Assembly (NCBI GenBank): GCA_049971805.1
Contig: JBMFKU010000016.1
Location: forward strand, 1-31,168
Reading direction: 5' to 3'
DNA from: Caldisphaera sp.
GTDB taxonomy: Archaea; Thermoproteota; Thermoprotei_A; Sulfolobales; Acidilobaceae
DNA length: 31,168 nt
The notes below the pieces were generated by a model. It was not told where the DNA came from and ran no database searches. It was given only the letters and a program-made list of their open reading frames with translations. The position numbers and the translations under genes are program-made. Positions 12,218-16,497 of the stretch are shown here, piece after piece (positions within the stretch are counted from its first letter, which is position 1; every line of letters begins with the position of its first letter).

Positions 12218-13168
12218 TTATTCTTCATCTTCATACTTAGAGTTTTCTTTATCACTTTTTCTACAAAGATTTTTCAACAAAATTCTAGATGCAGTATCAA
12301 AGCCCCTGGGCTTGCTGCTAGAAGTATCTACCTCAACAATTATTGGTAAATCTAAATCCTCATACGTTCTAATTCTGTCTTTCACAACCCCTACTTCAGG
12401 CTCAGCCGTTATAGTTGGCATAAATGCTATGTAACCGCTGTTGTTTACCCCTTCTACTGCACCTCCAATCAAAATTATTGGTAAATCTGTTTCTTTACTT
12501 CTCACAGCTAAAAAATTGTTGATTGTTTCTTCCTCTAGAGTTAATAAAGCCAGTTCAGTATCATTCTTCATTTTAAAGAACTGAGAATCATATGGTAGCA
12601 TTGTTCCAATTATTGCATTTGCCCCCATATAGCTTAAAGCCCTAAATATTTCTGGATATCCTAGGTCTTCATCTATAAATATTCCAATATATGCAGACTT
12701 CTTCTTTATTTCAAATACTACAACGCTTTTTCCAGGAGTTAATCCACTTTCCTCCTCTGATTTAGTAATAGCAATTTTTCTATATTTTCCTGAAAGCTCA
12801 CCTTGAGGATTTGTCGAAAATGTAGTTAAATATAGCCTTGGACCAGCTCTTTCTACTATAGGTCCTGCAATTGTATATATACCAAATTCATGAGACCATT
12901 TGGATAAAGCCATAAATGTTTGGTTTTGTTGCAGTTCAGATTCATTTAACCTCTCAGAAAAATTTTTCAACATCATTTTAATTTTTTGGTTTGGATAATA
13001 ACCCACAACGGGACCTGTTAATGGATATGCTGGCAAATAGATTAGATCTACATCATGCTCTATAATTGTTCTGTTTATTAATTCCTCAAGCCTTCTTAAG
13101 TTTGTTCTCCTTGCACCCAATTTTATTCTTGTATGTATTATAGCAATTTTTAGTGTCATTTTATCCAC
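12218..13168 (-). CDS. carbon-nitrogen hydrolase (nitrilase-fold) protein with degenerate catalytic triad
   Basis: DLIYLPAYPLTG, GKYRK and GIFIDEDLGYPE align with the family motifs FPE, YRK and ICYD; GTG start behind an AGGTG/GGTG-like context. Confidence 0.8.
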   Translation of the reverse strand: MDKMTLKIAIIHTRIKLGARRTNLRRLEELINRTIIEHDVDLIYLPAYPLTGPVVGYYPNQKIKMMLKNFSERLNESELQQNQTFMALSKWSHEFGIYTIAGPIVERAGPRLYLTTFSTNPQGELSGKYRKIAITKSEEESGLTPGKSVVVFEIKKKSAYIGIFIDEDLGYPEIFRALSYMGANAIIGTMLPYDSQFFKMKNDTELALLTLEEETINNFLAVRSKETDLPIILIGGAVEGVNNSGYIAFMPTITAEPEVGVVKDRIRTYEDLDLPIIVEVDTSSSKPRGFDTASRILLKNLCRKSDKENSKYEDEE

Positions 13169-13328
13169 CTTTCTAAAACATAGACCAGCAATCCCCTTTA
13201 TAATTATTTAGCTAGAGAGATATTTAAGCAGGTAGATTTATTTTTAAAAATTATAACTAAAAATTTTTAACAAAAATAAAAGATAAAAAGCAATTAAATA
13301 ATATAACTAATATACCAAATTACTTAAC

Positions 13329-13382
13329 TTATTTCTTTTCTGCAGCACCTTCTTCTTTCTTAGCTTTCTTTCCTTTTGCCAT
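13329..13382 (-). CDS. putative 17-aa basic micropeptide MAKGKKAKKEEGAAEKK
   Basis: ATG...TAA ORF below the ORF-track cutoff. AGGTGA RBS 7 nt upstream, TATA-like element further upstream, T-rich tract downstream on the coding strand. Confidence 0.6.
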   Translation of the reverse strand: MAKGKKAKKEEGAAEKK

Positions 13383-13532
13383 TTCTAATTCACCTGGGCC
13401 TTACGGCCTGGGTTTATTAAGGTTGAATTAATATACTTAAGAATTTATAGCACTAGGGAAGTAGAGAATTCAGGTAATATCTATGGGAGCTTTAAACTCA
13501 CATACTAAAGAAACTTGGAAAAATTGAGAGTT

Positions 13533-15479
13533 TTATATGGAAATTATTTTATTATTAAATAATAATTTCCATACCATTTCAATTTCTGATCTCTTTAGAT
13601 AATCAATATAATAATTTTTATCATATTTTCCATCAAAAAACTCTACTGGTATTGGATTTCCCTTATCATCTATTATATAGCTTATATAATCATCTATTCC
13701 AAAAAAGGAGCTTGCCTTTATCTGCTGTGTATTTCTTTTGCTTAATTTTCCAATCCTCTTATTTATAATCAAAAGCCTTGGATCTATTTTTTCATTCTTA
13801 ACCATTTCTATTGCTTCATAATATTTATTTTTAGCATTTTTTAACAAATTTTTTAATTCTTCACTATTTTTAGCATTTTTTAGTTCATTTAATGAATTTA
13901 ATTCTGCCTCTTTAACCAGCTCCGGTACATTACTTCTAACAGCATTTATCCCTTTTATCTTAAAAGTTAGATCCTTCTTTAACCCATAGTACTTGCCTGC
14001 AGCACCAATACCTTTATTGGTGTATGGAAATACAACCCAATAAAAATTATCTTCAACCCTTAATTTAATTCCAACCTCTTTTGTTATTTCATTAGCTAGT
14101 TCATCAACCCCTAATTTAGGCTTAACAGGGATAACAAATATGCTATCTATGATGGAATTTATTACCCTATAACCATTTCGCATAGAAATCTCATATGCTT
14201 TTTTCATTATTTCTCTCGCAACAGATGTAACTACTTCATACGCGGATATGCTTCCAAATAAACTGTTTCTATAGCCAAGATAACCAAAGCCAGACACCAA
14301 AATCCATTTTATTGCATCAAATCTTTCCTTAATTATCTTATTTTCTTTAAATTTCCTAAGCATCTCCCTCCTTTCAATCAATTTTTTTAAAACGCTTGAT
14401 ACCAAGCCTTCCTTGTCTAGACAAACTTTATGGCCTATAGCTTCTTTCCTATATTTATTACAATAGATATTATTAACTGTTTCACCAGATAAGTTATGCA
14501 AAACAATTATATTTGGATAAAGGCTTGAAAAATCCAATTGATATACATTAAAATATACTCCTGGATTTGGTACAGAAATAACACCAGCTTTATCTGATAT
14601 TGAGAACTCATTTAAATTCCTCCACAGCTCAAACCTCTTAACCTTCTTTATAACATATTTCCTTCTTATTGCCTCCAATACCTCCGTTGCGGTTAATATT
14701 TTTCCTATTGAAGCATTTGATGATTGCCTTAATGTTAAATGAGAAATCCTGGACCACTCTATCAAACCATAAAGTCCTATTTTAAGATTATTCCCAATAA
14801 CTATTACCCTTTCCTTTATTTCTCCGCTTAACTTAAATCCTATTTCATTGATTGAACTTCTATCAGAAACTATTATACCTATGTTTTTATTTTCTTTTAT
14901 TATATCAATAATGTCATCCAAATTATTTTTCCTTAAGGTCTCTTCCCTTTCCCCTTTTATATTTATTACATAATAAGATCTATCATAAAAGCTTGCTGGT
15001 TTACCAAACCTATTAAAGCTGCTTATTGATATAAATTCTATTTTAGGTAAATCATAAAGTGGATCGTCTAAACTATCATCTAATTTAAATTTTCCATTAT
15101 AATCAACATTATATCCAGGAAATGCATTGATTTCGTTTAACAAATAATTTATTTTATCTGGATAGGTATTTACTAATTCACCCATATTGTAAGATTTTAA
15201 TTTTTTAACAAAACCTAAAAATCTTTTCTCATCAAAATACCTTACCTTTATTATTTCTTTTTCCCTTTCATAATATGGTGGTGCATACCACTTCTCTACC
15301 TCAAAATCTTTTATAAAATCTAAATTAGATAGAAATTTTATCAAACTCAACTCATTAACTTCTATATAGCTAATTAAAGGTATTTTATCTATTTTTATTT
15401 CTTCTAAACCACTATTGGTTAAAACCTTTATAAACAAATTATTTTCTATATAATTAGCATCTAAGACCAATCCTTTCAA
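13533..15479 (-). CDS. polB2: family B DNA polymerase, PolB2 (Dpo2) group
   Basis: Motif A DFSSLYPNII is intact; motif B reads KWILVSGFGYLG; motif C YGDTDS is changed to SIIDS; exonuclease motifs are not recognisable. Operon context is typical of PolB2. Confidence 0.9.
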   Translation of the reverse strand: MKGLVLDANYIENNLFIKVLTNSGLEEIKIDKIPLISYIEVNELSLIKFLSNLDFIKDFEVEKWYAPPYYEREKEIIKVRYFDEKRFLGFVKKLKSYNMGELVNTYPDKINYLLNEINAFPGYNVDYNGKFKLDDSLDDPLYDLPKIEFISISSFNRFGKPASFYDRSYYVINIKGEREETLRKNNLDDIIDIIKENKNIGIIVSDRSSINEIGFKLSGEIKERVIVIGNNLKIGLYGLIEWSRISHLTLRQSSNASIGKILTATEVLEAIRRKYVIKKVKRFELWRNLNEFSISDKAGVISVPNPGVYFNVYQLDFSSLYPNIIVLHNLSGETVNNIYCNKYRKEAIGHKVCLDKEGLVSSVLKKLIERREMLRKFKENKIIKERFDAIKWILVSGFGYLGYRNSLFGSISAYEVVTSVAREIMKKAYEISMRNGYRVINSIIDSIFVIPVKPKLGVDELANEITKEVGIKLRVEDNFYWVVFPYTNKGIGAAGKYYGLKKDLTFKIKGINAVRSNVPELVKEAELNSLNELKNAKNSEELKNLLKNAKNKYYEAIEMVKNEKIDPRLLIINKRIGKLSKRNTQQIKASSFFGIDDYISYIIDDKGNPIPVEFFDGKYDKNYYIDYLKRSEIEMVWKLLFNNKIISI

Positions 15480-15480
15480 T

Positions 15481-15714
15481 TTATTTCTCCTTATGCCTTA
15501 GATTTTTTACCAAATAAAGTAATATACCTAAAACAATTACCTCTAGAGGATCGTAAATGCCATAAAATTGATAAGATGATATAAAACCATACGATTCCTT
15601 TAATATGTCTTTGATTTCATCCTTATCTTCATAGTCTATATAATCTATTATATCTAATATCCTTTCTATTTCTTTTTCTAAAACCATTCTTGTAGAAGGT
15701 GTTGTCCTACCCAT
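15481..15714 (-). CDS. small helical PolB2-associated protein (arCOG07300-like)
   Basis: MGRTTPSTR N-terminus, position directly upstream of polB2, GGGTGA RBS. Confidence 0.8.
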   Translation of the reverse strand: MGRTTPSTRMVLEKEIERILDIIDYIDYEDKDEIKDILKESYGFISSYQFYGIYDPLEVIVLGILLYLVKNLRHKEK

Positions 15715-16331
15715 AATCTTTCATCACCCAACTCCTTTATTGATATAAATGAGGCTATAGGGGTTCTCTTAGCATAGTGCTTAATTAAAACTGCCTGAAA
15801 TCCATTTCTATATGGATTTATTTTTATTATTGCATGCAATTCATGATGATGGAATTTTCCCCCTTCTGGTAAATACCTACCTAAAGAAGTCTCCCTATTA
15901 AAAATAGAAACCGTTATACCATATGATAAGAGCTCTTTCAAAGAACCAGTTATCGGAGTTAAAATACTATAATTTAAATAGCTTTGAGGGGAAAAAAGAT
16001 AAGGATCTATTATAACTAAACTTTTAATTCCTATATGCTTAACTGAGTTTATTAAATCCGCTATTTCATCTCTTCTAAAAGCCCTTGAAATGTATATATC
16101 ATCAAAATTACCTCCTATCATATCTGCATGCTTATGAATAAGATAAGGGTCTAGGTAACCAAAATCCTGTATATAAATTACTCCAACCCTACCATATTTT
16201 GAAAGGGATGCTATTGTTTTATGTGCGATAGACAAAACAGCCCTCCATGTGCCATATATTTCAAATGATTTCCCTTCATCTATTGGATCTAAAAGCCTAT
16301 CCAATGGAATTATATTAGTTGGTTTTTCCAT
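15678..16331 (-). CDS. inactivated RadA/RecA-like protein of the PolB2 operon
   Basis: LDRLL..G..FEIYG with no Walker A lysine; LDPY, ISRAF and Walker-B-like LVIID. Start placed at ATG 16331, about 25 nt from a TTTAAA box (leaderless). Confidence 0.75.
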   Translation of the reverse strand: MEKPTNIIPLDRLLDPIDEGKSFEIYGTWRAVLSIAHKTIASLSKYGRVGVIYIQDFGYLDPYLIHKHADMIGGNFDDIYISRAFRRDEIADLINSVKHIGIKSLVIIDPYLFSPQSYLNYSILTPITGSLKELLSYGITVSIFNRETSLGRYLPEGGKFHHHELHAIIKINPYRNGFQAVLIKHYAKRTPIASFISIKELGDERLWVGQHLLQEWF

Positions 16332-16497
16332 CCTTTTAGCAAAATGAATAGCTTTAAAGTTTTTATTGCATTTCATTTTAATCAAATTATTCTCTATACT
16401 ATAAACCATTTTTGCCCCCAGTTGCTAATTAATAAAAAGATAATCTTAACCAAGATATTATAAATTATAGCATAAGAGAGAGCAAAACGAAACTATT

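Follow-up and report, generated by a model that had tools for sequence, protein, structure and literature searches.

A probable 17-codon micro-protein gene with a GNRA-hairpin leader between polB2 and a CN-hydrolase gene in Caldisphaera

Introduction

Small proteins encoded by short open reading frames (sORFs) are an established kind of gene product in archaea. In Methanosarcina mazei, the 23-aa protein sP26 is reported to bind glutamine synthetase (bioRxiv 10.1101/2020.05.06.080432), and 314 unannotated sORFs of up to 70 aa are reported as translated according to Ribo-seq (PMC11456600). Ribosomal protein eL41 (Pfam PF05162, about 25 aa) is also very short, basic and stand-alone. In bacteria, amino-acid leader peptides such as trpL, hisL and thrL span 14 to 30 codons, are enriched in one amino acid and are followed by a terminator; we know of no established trpL-type attenuation in archaea. 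Histone and HMG tails are Lys-rich and disordered. KKE/D tails are reported to occur on snoRNP proteins (PMC11528048).

Here, we analyze a Lys-rich micro-ORF of the archaeal genus Caldisphaera (family Acidilobaceae), a further, lineage-restricted member of the sORF-encoded class without family assignment. Like sP26 and other archaeal sORF proteins, it is an unannotated, very short, stand-alone ORF with its own small transcript (predicted here), missed by gene callers and found in close relatives only; by analogy with sP26, its product would presumably act by binding a larger partner. Two general marks of sORF proteins, a coding substitution pattern and an own initiation signal at functional distance (AGGTGA, 6 to 7 nt before ATG), were found. 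Unlike sP26, it belongs to the phylum Thermoproteota/Crenarchaeota rather than the Euryarchaeota, is even shorter (17 to 19 aa), is strongly hydrophilic and Lys-rich, and is known here from sequence alone. In contrast to eL41, the micro-peptide has no Arg, contains 3 or 4 Glu, carries a net charge of only about +4 and occurs in one genus, whereas eL41 is widespread; the PF05162 model gave no match at E <= 10 in the source genome, micro-ORF included.

The arrangement of a short ORF rich in one amino acid, then a terminator, upstream of a gene in the same orientation recalls the bacterial leader peptides. Unlike trpL-type attenuators, however, the micro-gene lacks alternative hairpins, its whole peptide sequence is conserved, and the downstream CN-hydrolase gene has its own promoter box and no lysine link. 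The KK blocks split by small or acidic residues, and the likely disorder, are reminiscent of KKE/D, histone and HMG tails, a resemblance only, at a length too short for a homology test; those tails are parts of large proteins, whereas the micro-peptide stands alone.

Results

The window is the whole stretch of DNA analyzed, 31,168 nt of contig JBMFKU010000016.1 (assembly GCA_049971805.1), from a Caldisphaera genome (G000) of 1.52 Mb with 31% G+C in 66 contigs. The sequence-only reading had described a hidden micro-gene with promoter, structured leader, ribosome-binding site and T-rich tail on the minus strand of a 364-bp gap, and all of these features are present at the positions it gave. They are listed here with their surroundings.

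13533..15479, minus strand: polB2-like ORF, stop 13535..13533, product of 648 aa
13169..13532: intergenic gap of 364 bp between the polB2-like and CN-hydrolase ORFs
13457..13532, minus strand: conserved non-coding block from the polB2 stop to the micro-gene TATA
13436..13456, minus strand: putative promoter block CTAGTGCTATAAA(T/G)TCTTAAG (CTAGTGCTATAAAKTCTTAAG), with TATA box TATAAAT at 13449..13443
13450..13443, minus strand: TATA-like sequence CTATAAAT
13441..13434, minus strand: sequence CTTAAGTA
13409..13435, minus strand: weakly conserved spacer, expected to hold the transcription start (predicted at about 13420)
13412..13390, minus strand: GC-rich island CCCAGGCC-GTAA-GGCCCAGGTGA
13397..13408, minus strand: leader hairpin GGCC-GTAA-GGCC, stem 13408..13405 and 13400..13397, GNRA tetraloop
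13390..13395, minus strand: Shine-Dalgarno (SD) sequence AGGTGA, 7 nt before ATG, spacer 13389..13383
13329..13382, minus strand: micro-ORF MAKGKKAKKEEGAAEKK, 17 codons plus TAA, ATG 13382..13380, stop 13331..13329
13246..13289, minus strand: oligo-T tracts T5, T4, T5, T5, T5 (13289..13272, 13263..13259, 13250..13246), likely terminator
12218..13168, minus strand: CN-hydrolase ORF, listed start GTG 13168

The peptide, described beforehand as Lys-rich and of about 1.8 kDa, has a computed mass of 1832 Da and a pI of 9.9; it holds 7 Lys and no more, 3 Glu and no Arg, with a net charge of about +4. A type I toxin or membrane micro-protein was considered and rejected on a GRAVY of -1.74 and the lack of any hydrophobic stretch. 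By Pfam and NCBIfam, the neighbors are DNA_pol_B (a PolB2/Dpo2-like type B polymerase) and CN_hydrolase, the latter product giving weak nitrilase or amidase matches only.

A BLAST search of the gap against 41 related genomes recovered the block from four more Caldisphaera genomes, and the alignments of G002 and G005 stop exactly at the stop codon (query 26/35-204, window about 13507..13329). Retention of the ORF and its ribosome-binding site in close relatives, and synteny between the nitrilase-like gene and polB2, had been named as checks, and both came out in favor of the micro-gene: ORF and SD are kept in five species, and the order polB2, micro-ORF, CN hydrolase is found in five of the seven Caldisphaera species genomes. 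Among these five, protein identity is 53-59% for PolB2 and 74-82% for the CN hydrolase. The tblastn match of the G006-lineage CN hydrolase (loci L004 and L045) falls into two pieces, query 6-203 and 237-315, the approximately 33 unmatched residues being either a divergent insert or a disruption. The encoded micro-peptides are as follows.

G000: MAKGKKAKKEEGAAEKK, reference
G002 and G003: MAKGKKEKKSEGAAEKK, no length change
G006: MAKGKKAKKEEGAAGSEKK, +6 nt
G005: MAKGKKAKKEEGASSEKK, +3 nt

With 17 to 19 aa, they share 14 invariant residues, and Gly, Ala and Glu positions are conserved as well as those of Lys. The hairpin-SD motif and the peptide were not detected in the congeneric genomes G001 and G004, where a contig ends inside the CN-hydrolase gene in both cases, so that this non-detection is not taken as absence. 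Searches of these two genomes also failed to recover a polB2 orthologue, the 243-aa ORF or a close glyoxylate reductase; together with the micro-ORF, these genes may make up some 4.5 kb that is either variable or missing from the two assemblies.

With a profile built from the five peptides, matches were confined to these five genomes (5 of the 61 in the family Acidilobaceae, 5 of the 301 in the order), and the hairpin-SD-ATG pattern returned the same five of the 301 order genomes. In other genera, the 1.3 kb that follow polB2 held no SD-led basic micro-ORF at any of 16 loci, and no fused form of the Lys-rich peptide was found in the 61 family or 301 order genomes. Two MAKGKK matches in genus g13 were discarded, as they belong to the N-terminus of an unrelated 86-aa protein encoded in an operon. 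Derivation from a split-off PolB2 tail was likewise rejected, as no Lys-rich C-terminus is seen in 16 PolB2 orthologues, 13 of them from other genera.

Searches with the hairpin pattern gave 36 loci in public genome contigs: 3 from Caldisphaera or Acidilobaceae, and the others from G+C-rich bacterial DNA, mostly one conserved alphaproteobacterial gene. Metagenome contigs held 18 loci, five of them with the micro-gene and all five identical to the G002 or G003 alleles; the 10 loci in viral contigs were all unrelated and G+C-rich, with no virus-linked copy of the micro-gene among them. The 21-nt hairpin-SD pattern recurs on about 30 alphaproteobacterial and other G+C-rich contigs (loci L031-L084) in one protein-coding region (…DMKWDMGG…AGRKAKVNAVG…ENMP…), presumably resembling leucyl aminopeptidase; these matches are a codon coincidence, unrelated to the micro-gene.

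Contigs from public DNA runs showed no variant in 13329..13456. The best-matching run, X1, differs from the window by six clustered T/A swaps at 13549..13560, where the 3' end of polB2 is A+T-rich. A second Caldisphaera contig in X1 carries a G002-like micro-gene allele at similar contig depth, and two congeners therefore coexist in that sample. In the literature covered, which did not extend to supplementary sORF lists, nothing was found on the micro-peptide or on Caldisphaera transcriptomes. As far as the genomes compared indicate, the micro-gene is lineage-restricted, being found so far in the genus Caldisphaera only.

Indications of coding function come from the substitutions in the micro-ORF. 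On the parsimony tree (G000,((G003,G002),(G006,G005))), the five related sequences amount to three lineages (G000, G002 with G003, and G005 with G006), so the statistics rest on about 16 substitutions. Over 18 alignable codons, variable sites are distributed 2/2/8 by codon position (8 of 12 at position 3, binomial p = 0.019) and parsimony events 2/2/12 (12 of 16 at position 3, binomial p = 8e-4). The four A/G changes seen in codons for Lys or Glu all fall at position 3, while about 30 purines occupy positions 1 and 2. By the Nei-Gojobori method, pN in the micro-ORF is 0-0.11 versus a pS of 0.21-0.59; for polB2 in the same genome pairs, pN is 0.06-0.28 and pS 0.41-0.70. Between G000 and G005, pN is 0.02 for the micro-ORF and 0.28 for polB2. 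The micro-peptide is, from this lower pN, more constrained than its large neighbor.

Only two length differences occur inside the ORF, the +3 nt of G005 and the +6 nt of G006, both in frame, and ATG, TAA and AGGTGA are invariant in the five species. The spacer between SD and ATG measures 7 nt in G000 but 6 nt in the four relatives, and owing to this 1-nt indel the species share no reading frame extended upstream of the ATG. Shifted by +1, the frame has no start codon in G000 and a translation that varies far more from species to species; the micro-ORF itself is purine-rich and of low complexity. Mean pairwise identity is 0.91 in the TATA block and 0.80-0.91 across hairpin, SD and ORF. Conservation then collapses directly past the stop codon, with identities of 0.39-0.60 after the micro-ORF (0.39 in the 20 columns just past the stop) and 70 parsimony events in 60 columns. 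This pattern argues that selection acts on the amino-acid sequence of the micro-peptide. The claim of a stand-alone gene missed by gene callers is thus upheld by the retention in five species of ORF, start, stop, SD spacing, promoter block and hairpin, together with the coding substitution pattern and the in-frame indels.

In the promoter block, 20 of 21 positions are invariant in the five species, with 7 parsimony events over 26 columns around the TATA versus 23 over the 27-column spacer after it. A promoter function of the TATA block is predicted by analogy with the archaeal TATA consensus, and the usual archaeal TATA-to-start distance puts the predicted transcription start at about 13420, approximately 26 nt downstream of the TATA center; the variability of the spacer between TATA and hairpin is what one would expect near such a start. 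The upstream flank CTAGTGC shows no obvious purine-rich BRE, the consensus upstream flank of archaeal TATA boxes, so that the orientation of the promoter is assigned from the SD and ORF that follow it.

AGGTGA is complementary to the 16S 3' end ...GGATCACCTC of G005, G002 and G003; this end was not found in G000 itself, where it is probably unassembled. Among 1055 long ORFs of G000, the first ATG is preceded by GGTG in 24.6% of cases, versus 1.6% for 2387 internal ATGs, with a GGTGA-to-ATG spacing of mostly 4-7 nt, a range that includes the 7 nt of the micro-ORF. The SD and TATA of the micro-gene fit the usual signals of the genome and are uninformative on expression level.

T-rich tracts had been noted after the ORF in G000, and several T5-T7 tracts lie 40-100 nt past the stop in all five species, in sequence that is otherwise not conserved. 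Since archaeal transcription terminates at oligo-T, they are likely the terminator of the micro-gene. The CN-hydrolase gene has its own SD and its own canonical TATA box at 13220..13227, invariant as TTTAAATAT in the four relatives and reading CTTAAATAT in G000. Given the T-tracts and this separate TATA box, the micro-gene looks like a transcription unit of its own. For the CN hydrolase, a start at ATG 13159 (MTLKIAI...) behind AGGTGG is more likely than the listed GTG 13168.

The leader had been read as structured and possibly regulatory; of this reading, the 4-bp GNRA hairpin alone is supported. The GGCC/GGCC stem is invariant in the five species, and the four relatives have a GAAA loop where G000 has GTAA, the sole change being at the N of GNRA; the region from hairpin to SD is the most conserved part, with 2 parsimony events in 19 columns. 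In RNAalifold runs over leader, ORF and 20 nt beyond, this 4-bp hairpin is the only consensus structure, with 0 covarying pairs because the stem never varies, and alternative terminator/antiterminator hairpins of the attenuator type are lacking. Its predicted pair probability is 0.88-0.99 at 75°C, where the energy parameters are extrapolations. GGCC-N4-GGCC is also a DNA palindrome and could be a protein-binding site; the GTAA/GAAA change, one event only, would fit a constraint at the RNA level better than a DNA palindrome.

The minimum-free-energy folds of all five leaders show partial pairing of the SD at 37 and 60°C, and the outer leader helix melts by 75°C in silico. An RNA thermometer or SD-sequestering helix was rejected: 10-60% of 300 shuffled or 300 random genomic upstream 17-nt segments occlude the SD equally well or better, so that the longer helix is no better than such sequence. 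The CCCAGG direct repeat of the island, present in G000, is not kept as a repeat in the relatives, which have TCAGG or ACAGG and then CCCAGG or CCTAGG. No Rfam family exceeded its gathering threshold (best PsrR1, 19.3 bits versus 42, E = 0.73, on the opposite strand), and no tRNA or tmRNA was found in the window.

The block between polB2 and the TATA box (13457..13532) has a mean pairwise identity of 0.68-0.76, like the neighboring coding DNA, and invariant submotifs including ATATTACC and AGTTTA. It holds no conserved ORF. A consensus structure was lacking on the minus strand, and the plus strand gave only a weak, unconvincing A/U helix; the block could be a polB2 terminator, upstream control sites of the micro-gene, both, or part of a plus-strand transcript from the nearly symmetric TATA box. 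On the other side of polB2, a 77-aa ORF (15481..15714, minus strand) stops 2 nt short of the TTG start codon of polB2 and is overlapped by the 243-aa ORF (15678..16409, minus strand), neither with a Pfam or NCBIfam match.

Chance expectation was assessed in G000. It contains 537 ORFs of 8-35 aa behind GGTG, 16 of them with at least 35% K+R. GGCC-N4-GGCC occurs once (about 0.5 expected from base composition), and a 4-bp G+C-rich stem directly followed by GGTG and ATG occurs twice. Within G000, the micro-gene has no paralogues, and repeated 12-mer complementarity to it elsewhere does not exceed chance. Short SD-led ORFs being so common, the case rests on the comparison with relatives: the micro-gene is unremarkable from G000 alone and, by the alignments, far beyond chance once the relatives are compared.

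Discussion

The comparative evidence presents the locus as what appears to be a real, unannotated, lineage-restricted micro-gene, and we consider it likely that this is a translated, selected micro-protein gene. The TATA-box promoter at 13449..13443 would start a short transcript near 13420, whose leader of about 38 nt would carry a very stable 4-bp GNRA hairpin 1 nt upstream of AGGTGA. The ribosome would translate a peptide of 17 residues (17-19 in relatives), and transcription would end in the oligo-T tracts 40-130 nt past the stop. The predicted product is a free, soluble, disordered, net-positive peptide of the form AKGKKxKKxEGA..EKK once Met is removed, of about 1.7 kDa. The hairpin is probably a leader element that stabilizes the mRNA, presents the SD, or both.

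It is unlikely that the transcript is instead a small non-coding or mainly RNA-acting one (an antisense or protein-binding sRNA), with a functional GNRA hairpin and purine tract and an ORF that is incidental or occasionally translated. The concentration of conservation in the hairpin and SD-like motif (2 events in 19 columns) would suit such an RNA, as would a purine-rich tract that is predicted to be unstructured, like many sRNA seed regions, and a second SD-like motif, GAAGGTG, inside the ORF. Moreover, archaeal sRNAs that encode small proteins and also have RNA functions are described in a recent preprint (bioRxiv 10.1101/2025.10.28.685009). An RNA-level function alone, however, does not account for a 3-nt periodicity that places 12 of the 16 events on third codon positions, for A/G changes confined to third positions despite some 30 purines at positions 1 and 2, or for in-frame indels and conservation that halts exactly at the stop codon. 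The ATG also stands at the normal SD distance of the genome, there is no Rfam match, and the rest of the genome shows no conspicuous repeated 12-mer complementarity. That there is no gene at all, and that the ORF arose by chance within conserved promoter or operator DNA or a polB2 3' UTR, is hardly credible, even though SD-led short ORFs are common by chance (the 537 in G000), the adjoining block 13532..13457 is conserved without an ORF, and GGCC-N4-GGCC is palindromic. The codon-position bias (p = 8e-4), the in-frame indels and a pN/pS well below that of polB2 speak against it, as do the invariant start and stop with a near-constant SD spacing of 6-7 nt; the sole hairpin change, at the N of GNRA, fits RNA-level constraint and not a palindromic operator.

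The constant position of the ORF upstream of the CN-hydrolase gene, in the same orientation in 5 of 5 species, raises a further alternative, namely a translated cis-acting leader (uORF) of that gene, which lies 170 nt downstream. The advance of ribosomes through the seven Lys codons would then set termination in the T-tracts versus read-through, in the manner of an attenuator, and the share of Lys (7 of 17 codons) and the T-tracts after the ORF agree with this. We nevertheless regard such a role as very unlikely: RNAalifold gives the 5' hairpin only and no alternative terminator/antiterminator structures, the CN-hydrolase gene has its own TTTAAATAT box and SD, the weak nitrilase or amidase matches of the enzyme offer no evident link to lysine, and Gly, Ala and Glu positions are conserved beyond the Lys codons.

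For the micro-protein gene that we favor, any specific mode of action of the peptide is proposed tentatively and is open to real doubt. The peptide probably acts in trans, binding electrostatically to a polyanionic partner such as a nucleic acid, the ribosome or an acidic protein surface. At 17 residues, it is below the size of most cellular peptides known as stable, which counts against the micro-protein gene itself. In its fullest form, which we think rather unlikely, the proposal would be of a genus-specific, possibly de novo gene of 17-19 residues, under stronger purifying selection than its 648-aa neighbor, whose Lys-rich peptide assists a nucleic-acid machine in trans as a polycationic cofactor. 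As partner, the most specific candidate is the neighboring damage-tolerance polymerase PolB2/Dpo2, because the two genes are constant neighbors in five genomes and neither was found in G001 and G004; a ribosomal role is the alternative. The link to PolB2 is guilt by association, and the joint non-detection in G001 and G004 may be one assembly gap.

If these interpretations hold, the micro-gene would be among the shortest stand-alone conserved genes in Archaea, and the GNRA hairpin at the SD would be a dedicated module through which a very short mRNA stays stable and initiates translation efficiently at 70-75°C. Standard annotation does not see genes of this size, and the micro-proteins of Crenarchaeota are barely known; here, comparative sequence data alone make a strong case for protein-level selection on a 17-codon ORF. 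The compact and complete cassette of TATA, GNRA hairpin, SD, ORF and oligo-T offers a testable example for micro-protein discovery in hyperthermophiles, for the stabilization and translation of very short leadered mRNAs at high temperature, and for the way in which an A+T-rich archaeal genome gains lineage-specific genes, possibly de novo. Even if it should prove ordinary, it would still be a missing gene to add to the annotations of Caldisphaera.
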